Below are positions 1-31,155 of a stretch of 31,155 nucleotides of DNA, piece by piece. The DNA is from a virus (lineage: Duplodnaviria; Heunggongvirae; Uroviricota; Caudoviricetes): positions 1 through 31,155 of IMG/VR virus record IMGVR_UViG_2548876865_000016; one strand, written 5' to 3'. A program made the translations under genes and the position numbers. Below the pieces are notes generated by a model. The model saw nothing but the letters and a program-made list of their open reading frames with translations, was not told the origin of the DNA and made no database searches. How positions within the stretch are numbered: position 1 is the first letter of the stretch; the number at the start of each line of letters is the position of its first letter.

Positions 1-966
1 ATGAAGCTATACATCATCGGGAATGGGTTTGATCTGCATCACGAACTTGACACGAGCTATTTCTCATTTGGGGATTATCTTCGGAAGAAAGATCGAGACA
101 TTTACGATCACTTGGTTGAGTTTATGGGATTTACTGACTTACCCCCTTCTCTTTCCGCAGTTGATAAGTCAAAACATTCTCTTTGGTCTGATTTCGAAAA
201 CAGCTTAGCGGGTCTGGATACAGAGTCGGTGCTCGAAGAGTTTAGCTATCTTTTACCCCAAATTAGCAGCCCCGATTTTCGTGACAGGGACTGGAACTCA
301 TTATCCATTGAAATGGAACGTATACTAGAAAATTTAACCGAGGGACTTTTAACACAATTCAAGTCATTTATATTGCAGGTTAACTACCCCGAACTTAATT
401 TAAAAAAAAGATTGCGTATCGATTCTGATTCTATCTTTATCAGTTTTAATTACACTGAAACTCTTCAGAAATATTATAGTATTGATGATAGACAAATTTT
501 ATATATTCATGGGAAAGCATCATCAGATCAACAGTTGATTTTAGGTCATGGTATTGACCCTATCAACTTTGAAGAAAAGGAAGCAGTCCCGCCCGAAAAT
601 GCAACCGATGAAGAACTTGAAGAGTGGCGTCAGTGGATGGCTGATAATTACGATCACTCTTATGAAATGGGAAAGCAGACTATTAATAAATACTTCACTT
701 CTTCTTTTAAGAATACTGAAAAAGTCATTGCTGACAGCGCTAAATTTTTTAAAAATCTCAGTAACGTAGACGAAATCATCATCATCGGCCATTCGTTATC
801 ATCTGTAGATGTTCCCTACTTTTCTTTTATACATAGCATTGTTAGTAAAAATACGGAATGGATAGCCACCTATTATCAGGAAACTGAGCGTGAAGCACAT
901 CATACAACATTATGTGAGATTGGCATTAAATCTCCCAAACTGATTTCAGTAAGTAAACTTCTATAA
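1..966 (+). CDS. AbiH-family abortive-infection protein (321 aa; ORF starts at window position 1)
   Basis: N-terminal MKLYIIGNGFDLHHELDTSYFSFGDY matches the AbiH family N-terminal signature as I recall it; clearly AT-richer than the phage backbone; convergent with the tail operon. Confidence 0.55.
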   Translation: MKLYIIGNGFDLHHELDTSYFSFGDYLRKKDRDIYDHLVEFMGFTDLPPSLSAVDKSKHSLWSDFENSLAGLDTESVLEEFSYLLPQISSPDFRDRDWNSLSIEMERILENLTEGLLTQFKSFILQVNYPELNLKKRLRIDSDSIFISFNYTETLQKYYSIDDRQILYIHGKASSDQQLILGHGIDPINFEEKEAVPPENATDEELEEWRQWMADNYDHSYEMGKQTINKYFTSSFKNTEKVIADSAKFFKNLSNVDEIIIIGHSLSSVDVPYFSFIHSIVSKNTEWIATYYQETEREAHHTTLCEIGIKSPKLISVSKLL

Positions 967-1440
967 ATAGAACAAAATATCACCCAGAGGGCGGGGGTTT
1001 TTATACGTTCCCTCCCCCTTAGCTAGAGATCCTTTTATCAAAACTTCGTGCATCATTTTGCAAAGCCCAAATAAAAGCAAACTAGCCGCCAGCCCGCGCC
1101 GCACAAGGCTTCACAATATCCGCCCCCGAAAACCATCGGATACAACCGAATCATTGTGATCGTCACGGAAACTAAAACGATCCTTTTAAAAACATCATGT
1201 TATCCAGTCGGTTAGCGACTGGCGACGCGGTGACTTTTGCAAAGTGCTGCAAATCTTTGCGCAGAGTGCAAACGCCCGCAGGATGCAAAAGCCCAGCATC
1301 GGCGCAGGCTGGCGGGGTGCTTTGCACAAAATTTCTTTTGCAAAATTTTTATGATCCAAACTGCGCAGGCGGGTGCGGTGTAGCGCCGTTTCCGTCCTGG
1401 ATCCGCTTCCGTCTGCCTGCTGTCGCTTACGCTGTGGGCC

Positions 1441-1483
1441 GCTGTTGAACAAACGAAAGAAAGGCCGCACGGTGGCGACCTTT
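1441..1483 (-). terminator. Putative intrinsic terminator at the end of the tail operon
   Basis: On the minus strand a GC-rich hairpin (AAAGGUCGC-loop-GCGGCCUUU) is followed by a U-rich run (CUUUCGUUUGUU), ~65 nt after the stop of the 1549..3273 gene. Confidence 0.4.
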
Positions 1484-1548: not shown

Positions 1549-3273
1549 TCAGGCTATCAGGGGACCGTATTTGCTTTTCAATGTACCGGTTTTAGTGGCC
1601 GTTGCGCTGAACTGCGCAGCCTGCCCGCTGGCCCCTGTGTTGGGGTGAGTATGTGACGCGGCAGTCTCTGCCAGTTCCCTCACCACGTCCAGGGTGTCGG
1701 TGAGTAGTGTCAGGACGTTAATCTCTTCGCTTCCCAGTTTTACCACCGGGGCAATCAGCTGTTGCGCCTGGGCCACACTTCGGCGGATACCGCTGATTTT
1801 CTCAGTCAGTGCGCCGCTGACGTTTGACGTGACATTCCCTTTCACGTCGTCTGTAACATCGCCCGCGACGTCCCGTTTTGCGTTCCGGCCAACACTGACG
1901 GAATTGTCCTTGCTGCAGGTTACTGTCAGGTTGCCGGATGTGCCGATACTGTAATCACCCTCGCTGATATGGACCACCGCCCCGGCCAGAAGAGTGGCCG
2001 TGCCAAGCACGGTTGTTTTATCCGTTGCCTGGACCGTAGTTTCACGGACAACCACTTTGCGGATCTCTTCGTCGGTGGTGACTTCGCGCATCATGGAGTT
2101 TTCGCGGATTGTCTGGTCCGTCTGGCGTTCCCAGTCTCCGGCAACCGTCACGCGCTGCGATACACCATCGCGCTGTTGCTGCAACTGCTCGCCGGGTTTA
2201 ACCGCTGGCAGGTTATGACCCTCCGCCATAATCTGGCGCACGAAGGGCTTATCCTGCCGCCCCTCAGTGAACCCGATTTCAACCAGCGTGCCAGGGGGCG
2301 GAAACTGGAACATTCCCGACTCGCTGCCCGCCATTGGTACAGGTAGCGGAACGGCAGAATAAACCGGCGTATTTGCGGCTGGCTTGCCGTATTCGTCAAG
2401 CAGCTGGAGATCCACGGCATAGCGCGGGCGGAATGGATCGGCAATATTACCCCCTGAAACATCCTCGCTTGGCGCTTCCACCCTGGCGAATTTTGGAAGA
2501 TGCAGGCCGCTTGCCAGCTCCGGGAATGCGTTTTCAATCTGCCGCTGAATGGGTGATTTTTGCAATGGCTGGCCGTTGGCTTTGTTGCGTGGCTGCCAGG
2601 TGATTGTCATGTCGTCGTTATTTAGCCGGACCTGGTTTAACCGCTGGCCGTTCACCTCAGCACCCGGGCGCAGGCTCTGAATCATCGGCACAACCATTGA
2701 ATTGCCGCCTGCCGATGCCTGGCTAAATTCGTGCGGGATCTCTACTGGTTTACCCGCAAAAAGACTGTGCTCAGCAGCACCGACGAAGACATCCCCGTCC
2801 GGCAGCTGATACCAAAGATAATCCGTCACTGAAAATGCTCGGCCCAGACTGGCAAAAAGCTGGTAGCCCGTGCCGCTGTGCGTAAAGTGGGGGATCGGTT
2901 TATCTGCATAAGCAGCGCCGACCGGCGTTGTGACGGTCAGCCCGCTTTGCTCACTTATCCAGTCAGTAATCTGGCGCAACGTTGGATGCTGGAAAGAACA
3001 CGGCCACAATTTATCAAAGATGCCGACCAGCTCACGCACGAACAACCGGCATGTTCCATTATCAGCAGGCTGTGACCGTTCGACGTACCCGGTAAACCAG
3101 CGCAGGACCAGACCATCATAACCAACATCGATACGCACCATTTTGCCGGTGTAATCTGTCTCTGTCCCCGCCGTAATAAACCCCCGACCGCACGCGTTCA
3201 GCTCCAGCACGATATTGCAGTCAATCAGATGGACCGGATCAGAGGAAAGGTACAGGCGTTTAATTGGTTTCAT
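1549..3273 (-). CDS. Baseplate hub / central spike fusion protein (gpD-like N-terminus, gpV/gp5-like OB-fold, beta-helical repeat C-terminus; VgrG-like)
   Basis: 574 aa; central GMFQFPPPGTLVEIGFTEGRQDKPFV resembles the gpV/gp5 OB-fold motif; C-terminal VxGxxxxx-type repeats (DVAGDVTDDVKGNVTSNVSG); last gene of the tail array. Confidence 0.5.
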   Translation of the reverse strand: MKPIKRLYLSSDPVHLIDCNIVLELNACGRGFITAGTETDYTGKMVRIDVGYDGLVLRWFTGYVERSQPADNGTCRLFVRELVGIFDKLWPCSFQHPTLRQITDWISEQSGLTVTTPVGAAYADKPIPHFTHSGTGYQLFASLGRAFSVTDYLWYQLPDGDVFVGAAEHSLFAGKPVEIPHEFSQASAGGNSMVVPMIQSLRPGAEVNGQRLNQVRLNNDDMTITWQPRNKANGQPLQKSPIQRQIENAFPELASGLHLPKFARVEAPSEDVSGGNIADPFRPRYAVDLQLLDEYGKPAANTPVYSAVPLPVPMAGSESGMFQFPPPGTLVEIGFTEGRQDKPFVRQIMAEGHNLPAVKPGEQLQQQRDGVSQRVTVAGDWERQTDQTIRENSMMREVTTDEEIRKVVVRETTVQATDKTTVLGTATLLAGAVVHISEGDYSIGTSGNLTVTCSKDNSVSVGRNAKRDVAGDVTDDVKGNVTSNVSGALTEKISGIRRSVAQAQQLIAPVVKLGSEEINVLTLLTDTLDVVRELAETAASHTHPNTGASGQAAQFSATATKTGTLKSKYGPLIA

Positions 3274-16710: not shown

Positions 16711-17742
16711 TTACGCGCCTCCCTCCGGTGCTACCGGATCGGCTGCGAGGGTGATTTTGTCGAACGCTGCATACAGTTCGTCATGCTCGACGGCGTAACC
16801 TTCCATACGCAAATAGTTGTTTTCAAACTGCTTGCGATCGTCGCTCCAGTCGGCTTTACGCTTACGGGTTCCCGACTGCGTATAAATATGCAGGTTGCTC
16901 AGGGTGGTAATGATGAGGCGACCCTCTGGCATAAATGGCGGGGTGTACACCTGTTTGCCTGCGATCTGGCGGTTCATCAGCTGCGCCGCGACTTTTTCGG
17001 TTGGACGGTCAACCATATTCATCATGGTTGTGGCGTCCTTCCCAATCAGGTCACCGGAAATCAAAACGCAGAGGTTCGGGTCATTGCGGTAATGCTCCAG
17101 AATGCAGGTATGCAGCAGGTCAGTGACTGCCGCATCCAGCGACACATAATCCGCACCAGCACCGCCCAGCGTGACCGTATCGGTGATGATTTGGGCAGGC
17201 GTACGCGTTTTGACGATCTGGTGCCAGCCGATGTTAACGTCTTCGCCATTTGGGTTTTCTTCTGGTTTGGTAGTCTCGGCAACACTCACGCCGTTAAACG
17301 CCACGCGCAGCATATCCAGCGCAAATTGCTCATTGCTGAATGCCTGAATCAGCTGGAAGAATTCATCTTCACTGCCGGAGTTTGCCCAGTTGGTCAGGGT
17401 GTCATAGTCCAGGAATGAACCGGAATCCGTTTCCGCGAGAGCGTAAGTATTACCGCTGACGCCCAAGGATCGGGAAAAACGGCCGCCTTTTGTACGCCCG
17501 GTATAAATACCTGGCTTGCCGGTACTGATAACCTGGCCGGTGGTCTGCTGGACGTCTTTCACATTGACCAGGCGCAGGAATTCGGAAGACTCCAGCAGCG
17601 CCTGGCGCAGCATGGTTTCTTTCGGCGGCGTGATAGCAAACATCTTTGAGGTGTCGCGCACGCCATAAGATTTAGCCAGGGCTGCGGTAAAACTTTGCAG
17701 CATTCCCTCGGCCTGGGCAGATAGTTGTTGCGTATGATGCAT
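16711..17742 (-). CDS. N: Major capsid protein (gpN-like)
   Basis: 343 aa; P2-capsid-like size and position between scaffold and terminase small subunit. Confidence 0.85.
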   Translation of the reverse strand: MHHTQQLSAQAEGMLQSFTAALAKSYGVRDTSKMFAITPPKETMLRQALLESSEFLRLVNVKDVQQTTGQVISTGKPGIYTGRTKGGRFSRSLGVSGNTYALAETDSGSFLDYDTLTNWANSGSEDEFFQLIQAFSNEQFALDMLRVAFNGVSVAETTKPEENPNGEDVNIGWHQIVKTRTPAQIITDTVTLGGAGADYVSLDAAVTDLLHTCILEHYRNDPNLCVLISGDLIGKDATTMMNMVDRPTEKVAAQLMNRQIAGKQVYTPPFMPEGRLIITTLSNLHIYTQSGTRKRKADWSDDRKQFENNYLRMEGYAVEHDELYAAFDKITLAADPVAPEGGA

Positions 17743-17765: not shown

Positions 17766-18815
17766 TTAAACTAATTCACGCGGTTTTTTGTCGCCCGCAG
17801 GCGCATTGCCAGGACGACGCGTTCCGTTACTTTCCATCGCTGACAACTTGGTCATGACGGTGGTCAGTTGTTCGGACAGGTCGTTCAGCGGGTTACCGGC
17901 TTGACGGCCTGCGGAAAGCTCACGGCGGCGACTGCGGGTACGCTGACGACGCGCCGGAGCGGCGCTGAATTTTTTCATCGCTTTAGCCAGGTTGGCTTTG
18001 GCGACGCTGAATTCTTCCGCTTTGACTTCGTCTTCCGGGTTCTCTGCAACTTCCTCCGCCAGATCTGCCACTTCGGCGGCAGCGTCTGCGATTTCGTCAG
18101 CAATGACGGCCACTTCGTCGGCGGCCTGTTCCGGTGTATCGACCGTGTCAGCGTCACCCGTTGCAGCGTCTTTACCGCTTTTAACTAAATCCAGTAATTG
18201 CTGGATGAGGGCTTTTAACTCTTCCATTTTTTCTCCGTCGCCCTCGGTGGGCTTATCAGTGTTTGGTTCTGGTGTTGGTGTAAAATTTTTACCGGTAGTA
18301 AATAAGCGCGTCCAAAACCCCGGCTTATCTTTATGCAAATCACCCAGACTGAATGTTTCAAGGTTTCCGCGTTCGGCGTCCTTTTCTTCTCCAGCTAATA
18401 CGAATTTAATTTTTTCTGTTCCAAGACTCGCGGGAATATCTGTCACAGCCAGCCCGAAAAGATATTCACGACCGCTGCCCCCAAAATCAGAAACAAATTC
18501 CGCAGATGTGAAAAGCTTTTGCCCCATACGATTGGCATCTAATAAAAATTCATTCGGAATAAGCTGTGCATAGAGTTTAGTGACATCACCTTCAGTCTCT
18601 ACTTTGAGCGCGTCCACTTCCCCCAGATTGTAAGTAAAGGCACGTTCTCCAATGTCGTATTCTGGGTGATGCGGCCAAATCATGGCGGTGTAGGTTTTGC
18701 GGGTGTAGGTTTCTGCCGCATCGATCAACCATTGCGGCTCAATAGTGCGACCGTCCACTGCCTTACCGGACGTGGCAATACAAATCCAGTCCGTTCGTAA
18801 ATTAGGTTGCGGCAT
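17766..18815 (-). CDS. O: Capsid scaffolding protein (gpO-like)
   Basis: 349 aa; acidic Ala/Glu-rich C-terminal half; ...LFGLAVTDIPASLGTEKIKF... region typical of P2 gpO; divergent from the terminase large subunit gene. Confidence 0.8.
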   Translation of the reverse strand: MPQPNLRTDWICIATSGKAVDGRTIEPQWLIDAAETYTRKTYTAMIWPHHPEYDIGERAFTYNLGEVDALKVETEGDVTKLYAQLIPNEFLLDANRMGQKLFTSAEFVSDFGGSGREYLFGLAVTDIPASLGTEKIKFVLAGEEKDAERGNLETFSLGDLHKDKPGFWTRLFTTGKNFTPTPEPNTDKPTEGDGEKMEELKALIQQLLDLVKSGKDAATGDADTVDTPEQAADEVAVIADEIADAAAEVADLAEEVAENPEDEVKAEEFSVAKANLAKAMKKFSAAPARRQRTRSRRRELSAGRQAGNPLNDLSEQLTTVMTKLSAMESNGTRRPGNAPAGDKKPRELV

Positions 18816-18991: not shown

Positions 18992-20803
18992 ATGGCTAAA
19001 TATTCCGATGAATTAAAAGAAGCGGCCCGCACGCTTTATATTAAAAGCTGGTCGCCGAAAGATATCGCGCAGGAACTGAATATTCCACCGCGTACAATTT
19101 ACCACTGGGCTGACGCCGGGAAGTGGGCATCACTGCTGCCTGTTGAATCGGTGGAAAATGTCATCACCCGCCGTATCGACCAGCTCTCCCGCCGCGAGAA
19201 AAAAACCGCACTGGAACTGGAGGAGCTGCGCGAACTGATTGCTCACCATGTGAAGCTCATGGCGCAGCGCAACAAGCACGCCGAAAAGCTGGCAGAAATT
19301 CAGGCCCAGAAAGCGGCTTATGATGGTGAAGGGTACTGCCTCAGCAGCGCAGGCGGGGAACCAGGGGAAAGAAAGCGCCGGTATAAGAAAAACGACGTTT
19401 CCGGCATTACACCTGAAATGCTCGACACCTGGGCGCGGGAGCATCTCTTCGAGTACCAGCTGCACTGCCGCGAACATAAAGGCGAAGACTGGCGCTTCAT
19501 TCTGAAAAGCCGACAGGTCGGCATGACCTATTATTTCGCCTGGGAGGCATTCGAAGATGCCGTCATTACCGGTGATAACCAGGTCTTTTTCTCTGCAAGC
19601 CGCGCCCAGTCAGAAATCTTCCGCGAATACATCGTCCAGATCGCCCAGAACCATTTCGGCGTTACACTGACGGGTAAAAATATCCGCCTCAGTAACGGCG
19701 CAATACTGCGCTTTTTATCCACGAACGCCAGCACCGCGCAGGGCTTTAACGGCCACCTGTATGGCGATGAGGTTTTCTGGATCCCGAAATTCACGCGCCT
19801 GCACGAAGTTGCCAGCGCAATGGCGACACATAACAAATACCGGACGACCTACTTTTCGACGCCCAGCGCGAAAACACACCAGGCTTACCCGGTCTGGACT
19901 GGCGAAGCCTGGCGCGGGGACGACCCGAAACGCAAAGGTGTGACGTTCCCGAAAGAAGACGAAATGCGCCAGGGCATTCTCTGCCCGGACCAGATCTGGC
20001 GCTACATCATCACGATGGAAGACGCTATCAAAGGCGGCCTCGGGGCGCTTGTCGATATTGAACGGCTGCGCAACAAATACAGCCCGACCGCGTTTGCCAT
20101 GCTCTACATGTGCCAGTTTGTTGACAGTAAGGACGCGGTGTTCAAGTTCTCCGCGCTTGTCGGCTGCGAAGTGGACCGGGCCACATGGGGCGACTTTGAT
20201 CTGACCGCTGCGCGGCCCTTTGGCAATCGCGAAGTATGGGCAGGTTTTGACCCGTCCCGCTCCGGCGACAACTCCACCTTTGTGTTAATCGCGCCCCCAA
20301 TCGAGGACGGCGAGCGCTTCCGCGTGCTGGCCGTCTGGCAATGGCAGGGCTTTAACTTTAGCTGGCAGGCTGACCAGATTAAGCAGCTTATGCGACGCTT
20401 TAACATTACCTACATCGGGATCGATACAACCGGCATTGGTAAAGGCGTTTATGACCTGGTCAGTAAGTTTGCACCGCGCGAAGCCACGCCCATTCTTTAC
20501 AGCGTCGAAAGTAAAAACCGCCTGGTCATGAAGATGATCGACGTCGTCGAACGCAAGCGCATCGAATGGGCAAAAGATGCCGTAGACGAAACGAACAAAG
20601 AGCGCGTCGAAATACCGGCCAGTTTTATGGCTATCCGGCGCACCACAACCAACAGCGGCAACGCGCTAACGTTTGTTGCCGAACGCTCGGACGCGACCGG
20701 CCACGCAGATGTTTTCTTCGCTATCTCGCACGCCGTAATTAACGAACCTATTGATCACGAATATGACCGCCCATCGGGCTGGCACTTTGGGAATGCAGCA
20801 TGA
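18992..20803 (+). CDS. P: Terminase large (ATPase) subunit, gpP-like
   Basis: 603 aa (P2 gpP ~590 aa); precedes the portal gene with an overlapping stop/start. Confidence 0.85.
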   Translation: MAKYSDELKEAARTLYIKSWSPKDIAQELNIPPRTIYHWADAGKWASLLPVESVENVITRRIDQLSRREKKTALELEELRELIAHHVKLMAQRNKHAEKLAEIQAQKAAYDGEGYCLSSAGGEPGERKRRYKKNDVSGITPEMLDTWAREHLFEYQLHCREHKGEDWRFILKSRQVGMTYYFAWEAFEDAVITGDNQVFFSASRAQSEIFREYIVQIAQNHFGVTLTGKNIRLSNGAILRFLSTNASTAQGFNGHLYGDEVFWIPKFTRLHEVASAMATHNKYRTTYFSTPSAKTHQAYPVWTGEAWRGDDPKRKGVTFPKEDEMRQGILCPDQIWRYIITMEDAIKGGLGALVDIERLRNKYSPTAFAMLYMCQFVDSKDAVFKFSALVGCEVDRATWGDFDLTAARPFGNREVWAGFDPSRSGDNSTFVLIAPPIEDGERFRVLAVWQWQGFNFSWQADQIKQLMRRFNITYIGIDTTGIGKGVYDLVSKFAPREATPILYSVESKNRLVMKMIDVVERKRIEWAKDAVDETNKERVEIPASFMAIRRTTTNSGNALTFVAERSDATGHADVFFAISHAVINEPIDHEYDRPSGWHFGNAA

Positions 20804-21861
20804 CAAAGAAACAGCGTAATAATAAAAAATTCAGGTCCATGACCGGCAACAAGGTTGAAACCTTCACGCCAGGGCGCGGAAGCGTGATCACCTTTGGCGA
20901 ACCAGAACCCATCCTGACGACCGGCACGGATTATCACAATATCTGGTATGACAATGAGTATGACCACTGGCGACTCCCGATTGATCGCCTGGCGCTGGCC
21001 CAGCTGCCGAACCTTAACGGCCAGCACGGCGGGGTACTGTATGCGCGGCGCAATATGGTGGCCGGTGGCTATATCGGCGGCGGCCTGACGCCTGACCAGG
21101 TCGAACAGGCCGTCTTTGATTACCTGCTGTTTGGTGACGTCGCTATCCTGAAAATTCGTAATATGTTCGGGGAGGTGATCGACCTGCTGCCGCTGCCGTC
21201 GCTGTATCTGCGCTGCCGGAAAGACGGCTCTTTTGCTGTACTGCAGGAAGGGCCGGCGCTTATCTATGACCCGGAAGACATCGTCTTTTTTAAAATGTAC
21301 GACCCGCGCCAGCAGGTTTACGGCCTGCCTGACTATATCGGCGGCATCCATTCGGTGTTACTCAACAGTGAGGCAACCATATTCCGGCGCCGTTACTACA
21401 ACAACGGGGCGCACATGGGCTTTATCCTCTATACCAGCGATCCCAATCTCACGCTGGAAATGGAAAACGAAATCAAAGACAAGATCGCCCAGTCCAAAGG
21501 GCTGGGTAACTTCCGCAATATGTTTATCAACATCCCGAAGGGCGACCCGGAAGGGGTTAAAATCATGCCAGTGGGCGAGGTCAGCGCAAAGGATGAATTT
21601 GCCAACATCAAAGGGATCACCGCACAGGACATCTTTACCGCCCACCGTTTCCCCGCTGGCCTGGCGGGTATCATCCCGACCAACGGCGCGGTAATGGGCA
21701 ACCCGGAAACCGCCCGCACAACCTATCGCAAGGATGAAGTTATCCCACTGCAGCGCAAGCTAATGAACGGCGTCAACAATGACCCGGAGATCCCCGCACA
21801 TTTGCACCTGGTTTTTGATGTAGATATCCCGGCAATTACCGCCGAAAAGGGCGAAAAATGA
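20800..21861 (+). CDS. Q: Portal protein (gpQ-like)
   Basis: 353 aa (P2 gpQ ~344 aa); downstream of terminase large subunit. Confidence 0.85.
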   Translation: MTKKQRNNKKFRSMTGNKVETFTPGRGSVITFGEPEPILTTGTDYHNIWYDNEYDHWRLPIDRLALAQLPNLNGQHGGVLYARRNMVAGGYIGGGLTPDQVEQAVFDYLLFGDVAILKIRNMFGEVIDLLPLPSLYLRCRKDGSFAVLQEGPALIYDPEDIVFFKMYDPRQQVYGLPDYIGGIHSVLLNSEATIFRRRYYNNGAHMGFILYTSDPNLTLEMENEIKDKIAQSKGLGNFRNMFINIPKGDPEGVKIMPVGEVSAKDEFANIKGITAQDIFTAHRFPAGLAGIIPTNGAVMGNPETARTTYRKDEVIPLQRKLMNGVNNDPEIPAHLHLVFDVDIPAITAEKGEK

Positions 21862-22184
21862 GCGCAGTTAAGTTAAAATCATCCCCATTGTTAGCAATGG
21901 CGTGCGGGATGGTGAACATGCGAGTTTTTAAAATTAAATGTCCTGAATGCGGCTCACCGGCCATCATTCGTAAATCTGACTGGAAAGACAAAAAACTGGC
22001 TGATTTATACTGCGCCTGCACGGAAGTTGAATGCGGCCACACCTTTGTTTTTAACGCTCAGTTTTCTCATACCCTCAGCCCCAGCGGGCTGACCGGAAAC
22101 AAGCTGGTTAAATTTCTGATTGACCGGCTCAAGCCGGAAGAACGTCAGTTCGCGCTGGACCTGCTCAACGGCCAGACGGCATAA
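21858..22184 (+). CDS. ogr: Ogr/Delta-family zinc-finger late transcription activator (alternative ATG starts at 21897, 21909, 21918)
   Basis: CPEC...(21 aa)...YCACTEVECGHTF matches the Ogr pattern CxxC...YxxCxxxxCxxTF; the first start overlaps the portal stop (ATGA). Confidence 0.6.
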   Translation: MSAVKLKSSPLLAMACGMVNMRVFKIKCPECGSPAIIRKSDWKDKKLADLYCACTEVECGHTFVFNAQFSHTLSPSGLTGNKLVKFLIDRLKPEERQFALDLLNGQTA

Positions 22185-22252: not shown

Positions 22253-22672
22253 TTACGCAGCCTTGTTAACTTTTTGATGGGCTAACTTCAATGCTGGGAT
22301 GTAGGCAGGATGTAAAGCGCCCATAACTGGTGACGTTGGTGCTTCGCCACTTTTCATGGGCGCAAGATTGAACCAGTCACTGTTATAGGGGAGTTTTATG
22401 AGCGTACTCATATCAAATTTAGTGTCGTGCGCAAGTCCAGAGATAGCAAACCCAGCATCAACAGTTCTGATAACAAACTCAGTACCGTAAATTCTGTCAG
22501 TTTTCTGACTTGTTCCGTAGACAACCATTACTGCATTATCTTCTTCTGCTACCTTCACAACCAGTGAAGGGCGAGGTTTTGGGCCAGGTTCCCCTGGAAC
22601 CTGAGGAAAGTAACACCAAACGATATCGCCTGGCTCAGGGAGGGGGGTATAGTTTTTTGTATTGGTTGCCAT
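22253..22672 (-). CDS. PemK/MazF-fold protein (putative toxin / endoribonuclease)
   Basis: 139 aa; N-terminal PEPGDIVWCYFPQVPGEPGPKPRPSLVV resembles the MazF/Kid signature (GD-I/L-W-x-F...RP-x-VV); strong SD (AAGGAG) upstream; AT-richer than backbone. Confidence 0.55.
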   Translation of the reverse strand: MATNTKNYTPLPEPGDIVWCYFPQVPGEPGPKPRPSLVVKVAEEDNAVMVVYGTSQKTDRIYGTEFVIRTVDAGFAISGLAHDTKFDMSTLIKLPYNSDWFNLAPMKSGEAPTSPVMGALHPAYIPALKLAHQKVNKAA

Positions 22673-22681
22673 TTGTTCTCC

Positions 22682-22966
22682 TTACAAGAGACTTTTAGTA
22701 AATCGCTCCTCCGGTATATCGCTCGCGGTAGAAAGCTCACGAATAGTTTGGATTTGAGCTGTTGTCAGCGGCCCGTCATCTTTTTCGTAATGTGGCAGAA
22801 AAGCATCAGCCAGTTTACGTAATGCCAAATGGGCCAGTTCGGTTTTTGTCATCCCTGTCAGCGTCATCAGCGCATCCAGCGTATAGCCGCTGATAGCGTT
22901 CGGCGTATCCTTCTCTCTTAATCGAAGAACGAAATCGCCGGTTTTTTTAACGACGTGTACTGTCAT
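22682..22966 (-). CDS. Unknown protein upstream of the MazF-like gene (candidate antitoxin/partner)
   Basis: 94 aa; 9-nt gap to downstream gene; GGAG SD; no resemblance to MazE/PemI seen by eye. Confidence 0.4.
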   Translation of the reverse strand: MTVHVVKKTGDFVLRLREKDTPNAISGYTLDALMTLTGMTKTELAHLALRKLADAFLPHYEKDDGPLTTAQIQTIRELSTASDIPEERFTKSLL

Positions 22967-23243: not shown

Positions 23244-25859
23244 TCATTCTTTTGGGTGGCGACCTTCCACATCCGCCAGCATTTTTTGATACTCCCCGAT
23301 CGGATCAAACCGCAGACGCGTGGCATCAATGCCGTGGTTATCCCGCAGGCGTTCCCATAATTTATTTACCGTCTGTGACTCATCGGGTAATTGACGTGTT
23401 ATCAACTGACCGCCAGCGCTGGCCTGATAAATTTTGCCGTCTATCTCCAGACGGCTCCCCATTAACAACGAAACGGCCTGAATCTCTGAAATCTCAACTG
23501 AATACAACGCCGCATCAGCCAACAGGCTGGCAACCGCAGGGGTAAGCGATGCCCGTCTGGCTTTTTCAGCCGTCGATCTGACCTCGGTTTTTTCGACAGC
23601 AGAACGCCAGGCGACATCTAATTCGCTTCCTGGCTCATAAGGTGATCCGCTTTGCTGCCTTTTGAATGGTGTTTCACGTAGTCGCCGCATCAATTTGCGC
23701 CGCGTTGTCTGGTCCATGTTTTCAAAATCGACGATTTCCTCTTCTGATTCTTCTGTCATACCCTCCACATCAGGCAAAAAATCGGTGATTTTTTCGTCTT
23801 CCGTAGAGTTATTGACAGAACTCCAAGCGTCGCCGGTTGGCGACGGCAAAAGGTCAACCCCCAAACCAGGGCCGTTTTTGGCCCCGGTGGCGGCTTTGGA
23901 TTTGGCGCGGATTTTCCACTTAACCAGACGGGTGCAAATACGGGAGGCATCACCCAGACGCGGCGACCAGACCCCGAATACCTTTTCGGGGATCTCACAA
24001 TAGGCGTTCATTTCATCAGCTGGCTGATAGGCCAGACGGACGACATAGTTTTCTCGCGGGATCAAAACACCGCCCTGGCGGATGATGTAGGTAGCAAAGC
24101 ACCCGACATCGGCAGCGGCGCAAACCGCATCCATTGCAGGATCCACAAGCAGCGGCGCACCGCGTTTGAAGGTATTGTCAATTTTCTGGCGGGTCGTGAT
24201 CTGATTGCTCAGTTTGCGCAGCTCGCGGTAAACCGATATGGGCGGCTGTCCGATAGGCTGAAACTGGCGGATACGGTGAAGCGACGCCCAGGCCATTGCA
24301 TATTTGGCGGTTTCATTCAGCGGTTTGCCGCTTTCGTCGTCCAGTTCACCGGCCAGCGCGTGGCCGTCGATATTCTTCGAAATGTATTTAGCGATGTATG
24401 CCGTTGCTGACCCTTTCCGTGGGTCCATTTTTTTTGACTTGAAACGAGCACCGGTATTACGGCCCAGCTCGTCGCGGTCTTCCGCAATGAAGTAGGCGCG
24501 AAGGATCGCAATCGTGGCTTTGACTTGCTCTTGTGGCATAAATAGCAACGCGTGCCAGTGTGGTGTCCCATCGTGATGCGGCTCGGCGACGCGGAAGCCA
24601 TAAGGGCGCAAATCTTCGCGTTTCAGTTTGGCGGTTGCCCGGTTCCATACTCGGCATAAATAGCGCTGCGCCTGGGCGACGGTGGAATGATTCCATTTGG
24701 CGTTATGGTGGCCGGACGCAATATTACTGTGATATTTCGACGGGCAAGTGATGGTCAGGAAGATGCCAACATCGCCGCGACTTTGGGCGACAAGCTCAAC
24801 CCCAGCCATTCGGGCCATAAGCTCATGGCGACGAATAGCCGGGTTAGACGTGGATTTATTAATCATTTCCTCAAGCGACGAAACGTTGCCGTCTTCGTCT
24901 ACCAGTTCATGACTTTTGAAAAAATCCCGGTGTTTACGGCGCTGTTCCTGCCACTCGATCAGGCTGGAAACGCTAACGTAGGCGTGCGCTTTTTTATTTA
25001 CCGCGCCAACAGCACGCAGCTGGTTCTCGCGCCAGTCACAACGCAAGCGCCAGATTTTACGCCCCCACCAGTCAGGCGAAGCCATACGCAAAATGGCCGT
25101 GCATATGCGCTCGCGTTCCCACGGCGCATACCATGCAGGCGGTACAATGCGAAGCGCCAGCATTTCGCGGCCCTGGTGGCAATAAAGCCAGTCCAATTCT
25201 TCGACGTTCATGTCTGAAACATTCCGTCCCAGGGCTTCGCATTCCGTCCCCAGCATTTCAGCCATGCGGCTGGCGATCTCATTAGCGGCGCTCAGTGCTT
25301 CCCGCTTTGTGAAATCAGCCAGACGTTGCCAGCGCCCGAACCAGTACGCAGCCAGTTCGCCGGTGATATCAGGCGAAACACCTTGCCTTGTGCGTACAAC
25401 ATCAAGACGCAGCAATGATTTTTTCACGGTCCCCATAAGAAAATCATTGGTGTGTCTGGTTTCACGGTTGACCCGTAACCACTCAATTTTTTTACGCCAG
25501 ACTTCACGAATGAAGAACGGTTCTGATAATAAACGCGCTTCGACACCTTCGGGCGTATTGACCCAGGCTGCCGTCGTAGCTTTAGCGGCTTCCATTTCCT
25601 GCCGGATTATATTTTGATGGGCGGCCAGTAGCAGGCCGTACGGTTCGTACCTGTCCAGCGCCTGGATAAGCGCGTTACGGTCCCGAACCTCGTCGGGGTT
25701 GTAACCGGCGCGTTTGAAGATGTGATCGATGTGTTTTTTTACGGCTGGATGATGTACCACCGCCCCTGCAAGCGGGGCGATTTTTTTCGGTTCGTAGGTG
25801 TACAGGCCAATAGCTGGGCGCGGCGCGTTCCAGGGCCATGCAAAAGCGGTGTCAGACAT
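23244..25859 (-). CDS. A: Rolling-circle replication initiator (P2 gpA-like HUH endonuclease); start taken at ATG 25859 (ORF track GTG at 25877)
   Basis: ~871 aa; HUH-type motif (TPHWHALLF) and paired Tyr (ATAYIAKYISK); ATG at 25857-25859 lies 2 nt after the upstream small-ORF stop. Confidence 0.8.
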   Translation of the reverse strand: MSDTAFAWPWNAPRPAIGLYTYEPKKIAPLAGAVVHHPAVKKHIDHIFKRAGYNPDEVRDRNALIQALDRYEPYGLLLAAHQNIIRQEMEAAKATTAAWVNTPEGVEARLLSEPFFIREVWRKKIEWLRVNRETRHTNDFLMGTVKKSLLRLDVVRTRQGVSPDITGELAAYWFGRWQRLADFTKREALSAANEIASRMAEMLGTECEALGRNVSDMNVEELDWLYCHQGREMLALRIVPPAWYAPWERERICTAILRMASPDWWGRKIWRLRCDWRENQLRAVGAVNKKAHAYVSVSSLIEWQEQRRKHRDFFKSHELVDEDGNVSSLEEMINKSTSNPAIRRHELMARMAGVELVAQSRGDVGIFLTITCPSKYHSNIASGHHNAKWNHSTVAQAQRYLCRVWNRATAKLKREDLRPYGFRVAEPHHDGTPHWHALLFMPQEQVKATIAILRAYFIAEDRDELGRNTGARFKSKKMDPRKGSATAYIAKYISKNIDGHALAGELDDESGKPLNETAKYAMAWASLHRIRQFQPIGQPPISVYRELRKLSNQITTRQKIDNTFKRGAPLLVDPAMDAVCAAADVGCFATYIIRQGGVLIPRENYVVRLAYQPADEMNAYCEIPEKVFGVWSPRLGDASRICTRLVKWKIRAKSKAATGAKNGPGLGVDLLPSPTGDAWSSVNNSTEDEKITDFLPDVEGMTEESEEEIVDFENMDQTTRRKLMRRLRETPFKRQQSGSPYEPGSELDVAWRSAVEKTEVRSTAEKARRASLTPAVASLLADAALYSVEISEIQAVSLLMGSRLEIDGKIYQASAGGQLITRQLPDESQTVNKLWERLRDNHGIDATRLRFDPIGEYQKMLADVEGRHPKE

Positions 25860-26073
25860 TGGATGCCCCGCTATCACCCTCCCGCAGGGAATGCTTTTCG
25901 ATTAGCGGGTCGAGTAACACATTGAAAGAAATCAACAGCGTGTTTGCGGCTTCACTTCCGGCGAGAACACCCGCCAACGTTGCGTGTGCAAGGGCCAGTG
26001 TTTTGGCTTCGTTAAGCGCAGCCAGTGCGCCGCGCTGGTATTCCGAAAGACCGTTATTAATTTTGCTAGCCAT
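25852..26073 (-). CDS. Small hypothetical protein (73 aa), translationally coupled to dam
   Basis: ATG overlaps the dam stop (ATGA); its stop abuts the proposed start of gene A. Confidence 0.35.
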   Translation of the reverse strand: MASKINNGLSEYQRGALAALNEAKTLALAHATLAGVLAGSEAANTLLISFNVLLDPLIEKHSLREGDSGASNV

Positions 26074-27038
26074 CAGAAGAGCACCTCGTCAGCCGTTCCA
26101 CCCCACACGGAATAACCAGCACAAGGGCCGCAGTCAGGGCAGCACCCACCACCGGCACGGCGACAAGTCGCGCAGACTTTGAGGACGCCGATCACTTCAC
26201 TGGCGGCCCCTCTGGTAATGGCGTTCGCGCTAACAGAACGGTTAACGCTGATTTCCTGGAAGTTGAAACAGCGATAAATCTCGCGGGTGACTGGGGTGTC
26301 GCTATTGGACAGGATCACCGGCGAACCAGTAAGGCGGTTAATATCCAGCAGGGCGGCAGCTAACTGGCGATGTTCTTTAATGCCAAACGGGGCTGTGTGA
26401 TATTGGGTGAAATTAGCTGTTTCGCTTGTTGGCAGGTATGGCGGATCGCAGTAGATAACCGCGTCACTACCAATCATGATTTTTAACGTGCTCTGGAAAT
26501 CGCAGCACACGAAAATGGCTTTCGTGTCGTTAGCTTTTTCAGAGAATAAACGGATCTGTTCTTCCGGGAAGTAAGGCGGGGTTTTGTGACGCCCAAAGGG
26601 AACGTTATATCCACCCTGTTGGTTGTAGCGTACTACGCCGTTATATCCGTGACGGTTCAGGTAAAGAAATTGTGCTGCACGAAGAATCTTGCCCGCGTCC
26701 GGCCCATCTTCAAACACACTGCGCAATGACAGTAGGTCACGTGCGCGGGCGTTGAAATCATCGCGGATCCACTTATAGCCGTCTTTATCGCCGTACACTT
26801 TAAACAGTGGGCGAGCAGCGTCGATCACCGCATCAGGCCAGCGGGTTATCTGGCGATACAGGTTAATTAAATCTGGGTTGATATCACCCAGGATATAACG
26901 GCGATATTCAGTATTGAGGAAAACAGAAGCACCGCCGACAAACGGTTCCACCAGGCAATCGGCTTTCGGCAGAATCGGCAGCAAATCAGGCATAACGCGG
27001 CCTTTACCACCGGGCCATTTAACGAGAGATCGAATCAT
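26073..27038 (-). CDS. dam: DNA N6-adenine methyltransferase (Dam-like), with a Cys-rich C-terminal extension
   Basis: 321 aa; SAM-binding motif EPFVGGASVF and catalytic DPPY; C-terminal ~40 aa CATCRRAGGGCCPDCGPC. Confidence 0.85.
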   Translation of the reverse strand: MIRSLVKWPGGKGRVMPDLLPILPKADCLVEPFVGGASVFLNTEYRRYILGDINPDLINLYRQITRWPDAVIDAARPLFKVYGDKDGYKWIRDDFNARARDLLSLRSVFEDGPDAGKILRAAQFLYLNRHGYNGVVRYNQQGGYNVPFGRHKTPPYFPEEQIRLFSEKANDTKAIFVCCDFQSTLKIMIGSDAVIYCDPPYLPTSETANFTQYHTAPFGIKEHRQLAAALLDINRLTGSPVILSNSDTPVTREIYRCFNFQEISVNRSVSANAITRGAASEVIGVLKVCATCRRAGGGCCPDCGPCAGYSVWGGTADEVLF

Positions 27039-29564: not shown

Positions 29565-30572
29565 ATGACAATTAAGAAACTCGATGATGGTCGTTATGAA
29601 GTGGATATCAGACCTGCAGGGCGCAACGGAAAGCGCATCCGCAGGAAATTTGACAAGAAAAGTGAGGCTGTAGCTTTTGAGAAACACACTCAATACAACC
29701 ATCACGATAAAGAATGGCTAGCTAAACCGACAGATAAGCGGCATCTGTCTGAATTAACAAAAGTCTGGTGGGATCTGAAAGGCAAGCATGAAGAACACGG
29801 AAAATCCAATTTGGGTAAGATTGAAATCTTTACCCGGATCACTGATGACCCTTGCGCGTTCCAGATAACCAAAGCGCTTATTAGCCAGTACAGCATGACT
29901 CGCAGAGGGCAAGGCATAAAACCGGCCAGTATTAACCGCGACCTTACCTGCCTGAGTGGTATGTTTACTGCGCTAATTGATGCGGAACTGTTTTTTGGCG
30001 AACACCCTTTCAGAGGAATGAAAAAGCTCAAGGAGCAGAAACCAGAAACAGGCTATCTGACGCAGGAAGAAATAACATTGTTACTTGCCAATCTTGACGG
30101 GGACAACAAGAAAATCGCGATCCTCTGTTTAAGTACCGGCGCTCGATGGGGTGAAGCCGCGAAACTGAAAGCTGAGAACGTAATACAGAATCGGGTGACG
30201 TTCGTTAAAACAAAGACGAACAAACCGCGCACAGTCCCTATCTCTGAGGAAGTTGCTGTAATGATTGCGGGTAAAGGTTATCTGTTCCCTGATGCCTCAT
30301 ATCCGAAGTTCAGGCGAACAATGAAAGATGTAAAACCAGATCTACCGGACGGGCAAGCAACTCACGCATTGCGTCACAGTTTTGCTACCCACTTTATGAT
30401 TAACGGCGGGAGTATCATCACCCTGCAGAGAATACTGGGACATTCACGCATAGAGCAGACAATGGTCTATGCGCACTTTGCCCCGGAGTATCTTCAGGAT
30501 GCTGTTTCACTCAATCCGCTACGTGGTGGCGTTGACTCCATGAGTGTCCACACTGTGTCCACAGTAGGGTAG
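29565..30572 (+). CDS. int: Tyrosine integrase (P2 Int-like)
   Basis: 335 aa (P2 Int 337 aa); catalytic-box residues ...HALRHSFATHF... and ...LGHSRIEQTMVYAH...; transcribed toward the att core. Confidence 0.95.
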   Translation: MTIKKLDDGRYEVDIRPAGRNGKRIRRKFDKKSEAVAFEKHTQYNHHDKEWLAKPTDKRHLSELTKVWWDLKGKHEEHGKSNLGKIEIFTRITDDPCAFQITKALISQYSMTRRGQGIKPASINRDLTCLSGMFTALIDAELFFGEHPFRGMKKLKEQKPETGYLTQEEITLLLANLDGDNKKIAILCLSTGARWGEAAKLKAENVIQNRVTFVKTKTNKPRTVPISEEVAVMIAGKGYLFPDASYPKFRRTMKDVKPDLPDGQATHALRHSFATHFMINGGSIITLQRILGHSRIEQTMVYAHFAPEYLQDAVSLNPLRGGVDSMSVHTVSTVG

Positions 30573-30653: not shown

Positions 30654-30678
30654 ACGCCCTTACACGGGCTTATTTTTT
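30654..30678. other. Prophage attachment-site core (P2 att-core-like), integrase-proximal junction
   Basis: cgcccttacacgggcttatttttt is the reverse complement of AAAAAATAAGCCCGTGTAAGGG, matching the P2 att core as I recall it; ~80 bp after the int stop; low-GC DNA begins to its right. Confidence 0.5.
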
Positions 30679-30837
30679 TATGCATAAGCCCTATCTCTGG
30701 TAACCGTCTTCCATTGACCACATCGATAGAATCTCCCTTCATAGCACGATGCCTTTCACGTAACGGCATCGTGCTCGCACAGGTTCCGGCTAAGCACAAC
30801 CAGAACGCGCATGTTTGACGCTTACCAAAAAATATTC

Positions 30838-31155
30838 TCACTCTCCACATTTGAATGTCAGACGAGCGACGCCATGTAATCCTGCACCTTCTGTCTTCAG
30901 GTCAACTATCTGCATTTTTTTGCCCTGAGTAACACAGAAATGGGCTGCATCATTTTTTACTATATTTTCTGCACCAGATATTCTGCCCCTGGCTAAAGAA
31001 GCTTCGGCTTCGGTGTAGTATTGATTATCGAGTTTACGCTGAATATTACTTTTATATGCAAGACCAAATTTACCGATACTTGTCTCATCATTATGCACAG
31101 CACAACCAGACATAATAAAAATACTAATTAATGATATAGCAGCTATCTTTTTCAT
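30838..31155 (-). CDS. Host-flank small lipoprotein (105 aa); possibly YegR-like by size and synteny with a P2 attachment locus (unverified)
   Basis: Signal peptide plus lipobox (FIMSGC); low GC; start codon is the last three bases of the window; outside the att core. Confidence 0.6.
   Translation of the reverse strand: MKKIAAISLISIFIMSGCAVHNDETSIGKFGLAYKSNIQRKLDNQYYTEAEASLARGRISGAENIVKNDAAHFCVTQGKKMQIVDLKTEGAGLHGVARLTFKCGE

Follow-up and report, generated by a model that had tools for sequence, protein, structure and literature searches.

An AbiH-family gene as cargo at the end of a P2-related prophage in the cyaR terminator of Escherichia coli

The stretch of viral DNA considered here, referred to as the window, is 31,155 nucleotides long and opens with a complete open reading frame at 1-966 (+ strand). 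This frame encodes a protein of 321 amino acids with a predicted SIR2-like core, starts with an ATG, and has a product whose N-terminus reads MKLYIIGNGFDLHHELDTSYF. Both ends of the window are start codons, position 1 being the ATG of this gene (+) and position 31155 the ATG of yegR (-), which means that the window was cut at called gene boundaries. An earlier interpretation made from the DNA letters alone (below, the sequence-only reading) had pointed out that the frame begins at coordinate 1, that it is much more AT-rich than the tail genes, and that it is convergent with them, and all three observations are borne out. The GC content of the gene is 0.366 (GC3 0.35), compared to 0.565 for the neighbouring hub gene, 0.543 for the capsid gene and 0.527 for the whole window; the tail genes are at about 0.55, against 0.37 here. 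The neighbour at 1549-3273 is encoded on the - strand, and the two genes are therefore convergent, with a gap of 582 bp between them.

Several lines of evidence place the gene in the AbiH family of abortive-infection genes. The Pfam AbiH model (PF14253) matches the protein with 209.9 bits (E 9e-62, cut-off 30.9), and the AbiH model of PADLOC matches it with 100.9 bits, although in that case the best stretch covers only residues 118-308. A search of NCBIfam with the protein gave 0 matches. All 54 aligned homologues match PF14253 as well, and E. coli orthologues that are 96-97% identical carry the RefSeq label 'bacteriophage abortive infection AbiH family protein'; the family name is already on record for these orthologues. 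The sequence-only reading had proposed the family from the N-terminus and had suggested a profile search as a check, and the Pfam and PADLOC scores agree with it. Judged by these profile matches, it is practically certain that the frame encodes an AbiH family member. The possibility had also been raised that the frame is the 3' fragment of a longer gene, and this was rejected. PF14253 is matched end to end (model positions 1-260 of 260 aligned to residues 3-291), nearly all of the homologues (120 listed of 871) are 307-380 aa long with 89-100% query coverage and 2 are partial, and in 7 related loci there is no other in-frame start between the ATG and the nearest upstream stop.

The window and Salmonella phage SI7 (Peduoviridae, Irrigatiovirus) share 92% identity from window position 1054 on. 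The element is a P2-related, Irrigatiovirus-like prophage of ~30.9 kb that sits in the cyaR terminator of E. coli, between yegQ and yegR. The gene at 1549..3273 (-) is the last tail gene and encodes a baseplate hub/spike protein of 574 aa, which has weak matches to Gp5 C-terminal repeats and is a baseplate protein in SI7. Further into the prophage are the genes for a P2-family capsid protein (16711-17742), the GPO scaffold (17766-18815), the large terminase (18992-20803) and the portal protein (20800-21861). The end of the portal gene overlaps by 4 bp with a gene for an Ogr/Delta zinc-finger protein of 108 aa (21858-22184, +; Pfam 62.9 bits), a presumed late-gene activator that adjoins the portal gene here and is found at the att end in P2. 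Then follow the gpA replication protein (23244-25877), a Dam-type methylase (26073-27038) and, reading towards the att core, a tyrosine integrase (29565..30572, +) with Pfam Int_N and Phage_integrase matches. The integrase is 99.7% identical to that of a prophage in E. coli RM13322. In RM13322 an IS3-family transposase lies just past the prophage cox gene, in the early region (locus L003, 4899-6112), and with such an insertion in at least one E. coli carrier, some copies of the AbiH prophage are likely defective. It is worth noting that the prophage has another gene pair of interest at 22253-22966 (-), where a 94-aa ORF without family match is followed by a 139-aa PemK/MazF-like toxin (Pfam 28.7 bits), at a GC content of about 0.46. 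This pair sits between the Ogr/Delta gene and gpA, that is, in the classical gpA-portal hotspot of P2-like phages, and probably forms a toxin-antitoxin module, the second accessory unit of the prophage.

The borders of the element can be given precisely. The sequence upstream of window position 1 was taken from a 5.1-Mb contig (GCA_964048225.1), which agrees with the window at every one of the 8966 bases compared; the identical AbiH protein appears in 113 blocks in the assembly collection. Upstream of the AbiH gene, this contig contains the yegQ stop codon and then the CyaR sRNA (Rfam 100.7 bits), 254-169 bp before position 1. Comparison of contig and window shows an exact direct repeat of 22 bp, CCCTTACACGGGCTTATTTTTT, whose sequence is that of the CyaR terminator. 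Its left copy is at -187..-166, outside the window, and its right copy at 30657..30678 (+), 85 bp past the integrase stop codon. Extending the sequence leftward, as the sequence-only reading had advised, thus located yegQ, CyaR and the second att copy. Inside the repeats there are tandem TGTCCACA sites 11 bp apart, at 30545 and 30556 (30545..30563, +), which are presumably arm-type integrase sites of the P arm. A matching tandem pair (TGTCCACA / TGACCACA), also 11 bp apart, lies upstream of the AbiH gene at -124 and -113. Of the 4 occurrences of the TGTCCACA motif across the window, 3 are at the integrase end; the tandem sites are presumed to be the integrase arm sites of attP. The empty site, rebuilt from the CyaR side and the yegR side, is contiguous in 4562 of the 5426 complete E. 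coli genomes, with identities reaching 100%, so everything between the repeats, AbiH included, is one insertion of ~30.9 kb. That AbiH is cargo inside an att-bounded mobile element is thus very highly probable, and the claim of the sequence-only reading that it is cargo at the prophage end holds, with the 22-bp repeat bracketing the element and AbiH on its inner side.

On the right, the last 477 bases of the window (30679-31155) are bacterial and 99.1% identical to E. coli on the DNA level, and on the left the att copy lies 166-187 bp beyond the window. A host other than E. coli was considered as the source of the window and rejected, given this 99.1% identity of the right flank and the 5.1-Mb contig that agrees with the window over 8966 bp. 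The right flank contains yegR (30838..31155, -), which is outside the prophage and 100% identical over 105 aa to the YegR-annotated stretch of RM13322. Between the right att core and yegR (30680-30837) there is a further TGACCACA arm-like site at 30715. It is at about the expected P' arm distance from the core, and this flank is also present in prophage-free E. coli; the site looks like something that an earlier P2-like phage left behind at cyaR.

The AbiH gene is followed by a short 3' flank that is specific to the AbiH cassette (967..1053, +), similarity to SI7 beginning only at 1054. A weak hairpin at about 987-1020 in this flank folds no better than shuffled sequence (z -0.63). The stretch from 1054 to 1548 (about 480 bp) belongs to the phage backbone as a non-coding spacer that separates the cargo slot from the hub gene, and is no part of the AbiH cassette. 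It contains 4-5 copies of TTTGCAAA(A/G), several GATC sites and long, perfectly conserved blocks, and the phage also encodes the Dam-type methylase. The spacer is common to SI7 and to prophages of 5 other genera, with conservation that runs block-wise, and the terminator-like hairpin of the hub gene lies within it at 1483-1460 (-). An Rfam search of the whole window, spacer included, gave no match. A 91-aa ORF at 1195-1470 (-), part of which is a hypothetical protein in SI7, was considered as a partner gene for AbiH and rejected. Its conservation is block-wise and not codon-like, so the ORF is probably spurious, and phages without AbiH have the region too.

Upstream of the gene, the picture is less clear with regard to expression. 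The sequence-only reading had placed the promoter, and possibly a partner gene, to the left of the window. The flank has been recovered, but the 168 bp upstream of AbiH contain no convincing sigma-70 promoter, and the scan counts are at chance. There is one weak promoter-like site, and a conserved terminator-like hairpin with a U tract (z -3.65) falls between this sole candidate promoter and the AbiH ATG. No partner gene was found on either side: upstream there are only the attP arm sites, the conserved hairpin, CyaR and yegQ, and downstream there is the non-coding spacer. AbiH is thus present at this locus as a single-gene system.

The predicted structure of AbiH (pLDDT 89.2) has a Rossmann fold of the SIR2 type. 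In Foldseek, the top matches of the model are immune sirtuins that hydrolyse NAD+, with weak E-values (best 0.026). In the alignment of 54 sequences, G7, N8, G9, F10 and D11 are invariant, as are N150, T152, H170, G182, H183, G263, H264, S265 and D270. Four candidate NAD-site motifs include most of these residues. They are GNGFD at residues 7-11 (GAGIS in E. coli CobB), FNYTE at 149-153, with FNYT at 149-152 (TQNID in CobB), YIHG at 168-171, with IHG at 169-171 (HMHG in CobB), and GHSLSSVDVP at 263-272 (GTSGHVYP, or GTSxxVYP, in CobB). The motifs come in the same order as in CobB and each stands behind a predicted strand, a correspondence matched by eye and not by a computed alignment, and on the model they may be the counterparts of the sirtuin hallmarks of CobB. 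As for the catalytic histidine, H170 and H183 are both invariant in the 54 homologues, and H183 remains an alternative candidate to H170. An hhalign comparison of AbiH with CobB gave a probability of 0.3%, and here H183 was paired with the catalytic His of CobB while the Asn motif was misplaced. In the model, helices inserted at about 20-125 and 187-255 take the place of the zinc module of a sirtuin. Sequence profiles do not pick up the relationship: Pfam SIR2 and SIR2_2 have no match in the 54 AbiH members at E <= 5, and a profile search of PDB sequences has no SIR2 match at E <= 10. The same PDB search returned only chance-level matches, to a nucleotidase and a class-3 lipase (E 0.08-0.4). 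The lipase reading was rejected, as its alignment sits on GHSL, which is read as a sirtuin GTSL-type strand-loop and not as a lipase nucleophile elbow. The catalytic core of AbiH is predicted, from the model, to be a divergent sirtuin (SIR2) fold.

AbiH is not a constant part of this group of phages. The sister phages SI7, SW3 and SW5 lack it. In SI7 the hub protein is 97.6% identical, the integrase is a different one (51% identical), and a 68-aa ORF lies between the integrase gene and the conserved spacer. Five prophages in Citrobacter, Enterobacter, Erwinia, Rahnella and Kluyvera, with hubs that are 80-98% identical, also have no AbiH, and their slot contains other small genes (a lipoprotein, a zinc-ribbon protein, DUF333) or nothing. 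In the complete E. coli genomes, AbiH lies beside the hub in 19 of the 19 genomes that have the hub gene, and it is linked to the hub gene in 19 of the 19 that have AbiH. Salmonella shows the same arrangement of AbiH and hub. Because it is absent from SI7 and the five prophages and lies beside the hub in all 19 E. coli genomes, AbiH is a moron, dispensable cargo specific to its lineage, and the slot that it fills, immediately outside the P' arm, is variable. A tblastn search for AbiH relatives in 50,697 sequenced phage records found none. Relatives that are 57% identical, in Klebsiella and others, have genes for HNH nucleases, ScoMcrA-like proteins, SymE and CbeA around them; this setting is a defence island, and it has no neighbour in common with the window locus.

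The gene is under purifying selection. The reading frame is unbroken in each of the five orthologues compared (85-98% identical), and dN/dS values are 0.34-0.39. Substitutions among the orthologues show no clear clustering in any region, the helical inserts, a possible sensor surface, included. In a metagenomic relative, the locus L086 (932-5327; also L087 and L088) contains an intact AbiH gene that is 85% identical, with the spacer kept. After AbiH and the spacer it contains a portal fragment, an Ogr/Delta gene, a gene for a 570-aa protein with a weak Apea-like HEPN match, and then yegS; this is a decayed prophage in which the structural genes have been lost and AbiH has survived. Between the window and its closest variant in IMG/VR (L004, 1699-2661) there are 5 non-synonymous differences (G71S, G115R, I140L, W212C, K283E) and 0 synonymous ones. 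Among the 5 orthologues, W212 and K283 are found only in the window allele, in numbers too small to call selection. The host of the L004 variant has a different CyaR terminator sequence.

The explanation that we find rather probable is that AbiH is a stand-alone, NAD+-consuming abortive-infection effector of the SIR2 type, which the prophage carries as cargo against other phages. For NAD+ depletion as its mode of action, the chances are a little better than even. Expression in the lysogen, the consumption of NAD+, the trigger and the resistance phenotype are parts of this explanation that we infer. The lysogen would express AbiH at a low level, and on infection by a different phage, a phage cue would activate the enzyme, possibly via oligomerisation, as in other defence sirtuins. 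The activated protein would then consume NAD+, and the infected cell would stop supporting phage growth. Such abortive infection would protect the lysogen population and, with it, the resident prophage. A different outcome of the same fold is conceivable. Sirtuins of the SirTM type modify specific targets by ADP-ribosylation or deacylation, and a SIR2-like AbiH could likewise act on a specific phage or host target in one of these ways, or make a signalling nucleotide, with no depletion of NAD+. We consider this rather unlikely. In structure, AbiH matches best with NAD+-hydrolysing immune sirtuins, and it has been grouped with them in publications; the protein has no additional target-binding domain, and the abortive phenotype reported for AbiH fits depletion.

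Two other explanations concern the gene itself and its origin. It could be silent or decaying cargo without function, a hitch-hiker that is kept through its proximity to attP. This would agree with the lack of a clear promoter, the terminator-like hairpin upstream and the 3' hairpin that is no better than chance, and the differences from the L004 variant (5 non-synonymous, 0 synonymous) can be read in the same way. However, the frame is intact in all 5 orthologues down to 85% identity, with the dN/dS values given above, all family-invariant residues are present, the identical protein occurs in 113 assembly blocks, and AbiH has been kept in L086, where the rest of the prophage decayed, which together make a functionless gene quite improbable. 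It could also be argued that AbiH is a chromosomal gene of the bacterium, or part of a distinct neighbouring island, and not a phage gene, since it is right at the margin of the element, has a composition unlike that of the phage, and has no relative in 50,697 sequenced phage genomes. This has been largely refuted and is hardly credible any more: AbiH is bracketed by the two 22-bp att copies and located past the P' arm sites, CyaR runs straight into the yegR flank in the 4562 genomes with the empty site, and the linkage to the hub gene holds in 19/19 complete E. coli genomes, with the same arrangement in Salmonella.

A more speculative idea concerns the position of the gene. The slot outside the P' arm could be a separate and so far unlisted cargo position of Peduoviridae, where AbiH would be wired to the state of the element, or else to read-through from cyaR; we regard this as a long shot. 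In the integrated state, the CyaR terminator, which is regenerated by the att core, and the second conserved hairpin would insulate AbiH. In the excised state, AbiH would be directly downstream of the integrase gene and co-oriented with it. If this wiring were true, AbiH expression would differ between the integrated prophage and the phage after excision or during replication. Another option is leaky read-through that starts at the cyaR promoter, which is controlled by cAMP-CRP, and that would tie the level of defence to host physiology.

With regard to the family, the locus is a well-supported but ordinary example of AbiH, and it leaves what is known about the family unchanged, since the E. 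coli orthologues already bear the AbiH name in RefSeq, and AbiH has appeared before in published surveys as one of the systems enriched in phages (for phage genomes, bioRxiv 10.1101/2024.10.26.620412). Its value lies in being a clean and fully delimited one-gene immune sirtuin on a small, inducible-looking E. coli prophage. As the att sites, the promoter region and the neighbours are now known, it is a convenient AbiH system in a tractable host. Questions that can be addressed with it include whether NAD+ is hydrolysed, what the phage cue is, how a sirtuin core without a sensor stays off, and why AbiH spares the lytic growth of its own prophage.

AbiH was reportedly described in Lactococcus lactis by Prevots et al. 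in 1996, and the lactococcal gene has been reported to be associated with integrative conjugative elements. The gene at the present locus resembles lactococcal AbiH and PF14253 members in being a single gene for about 320-350 aa, with an N-terminal GNGFD motif and carriage on a mobile element. It differs in that the relation is distant, the host is Gram-negative, and the carrier is a P2-related prophage and not an integrative conjugative element. A closer comparison is with Vibrio, where AbiH is a one-gene system with a SIR2-like domain; protection there amounts to 5.7 logs, and two phage proteins, Tlaloc and Enki, inhibit the system (bioRxiv 10.1101/2024.06.14.598830). This AbiH is also a one-gene, SIR2-like system from a gammaproteobacterium, and its defence has been measured, whereas the window AbiH is known here from its sequence. 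Among the relatives of the window protein there are Vibrio proteins with 46% identity. The AbiH of S. thermophilus is active as well and inhibited one phage genus (PMC12322248). AbiH has been placed among the 'SIRim' immune sirtuins (bioRxiv 10.1101/2024.09.18.613514), and a 2026 review proposed NAD depletion for it from structure prediction (PMC13064643). The statement in the sequence-only reading that the mechanism of AbiH is uncharacterised is therefore partly outdated, given the SIR2-like domain, the defence seen in Vibrio and S. thermophilus, and the known phage inhibitors. The literature searched contained no biochemical proof of the activity, and neither an NADase assay nor another enzyme assay for any AbiH.

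Compared with other defence sirtuins and their relatives, namely ThsA (Thoeris), DSR2, SIR2-HerA (Nezha), KomC (Kongming), Avs5 and human FAM118B, AbiH has no detectable sequence similarity. It also does without the sensor or partner domain of those defence sirtuins (SLOG, HerA, STAND, KomB) and has large helical inserts instead.

The place of the gene can be compared with that of other cargo in P2-like phages. Published defence hotspots of these phages are named gpA-portal, within tail genes, integrase-att and integrase-primase (PMC9122126, PMC13586616). No mention of AbiH, or of the exact slot between tail and attP, was found in these two papers. Unlike cargo at the gpA-portal hotspot, which is occupied here by the PemK-like toxin gene, or at the one within the tail genes, AbiH lies between the last tail gene and attP, across attP from the integrase gene. 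The sequence-only reading had likened this to the position of ogr in P2. As a positional analogy this is sound: E. coli T-HYM1 has a true P2-like prophage at the cyaR site (integrase region 94.5% identical), in which gpD is followed by a 73-aa DNA-binding transcriptional regulator, presumed to be ogr-like, at the same end. The analogy does not go further, as the prophage in the window has its own Ogr/Delta gene at 21858-22184, and P2 ogr and AbiH are unrelated in sequence and function and have opposite orientations. In kind, the closest parallel is with the accessory exclusion genes old, tin and fun/Z of P2, which, like AbiH as interpreted here, are dispensable anti-phage cargo of atypical GC content, carried by a Peduoviridae prophage and varying among relatives.
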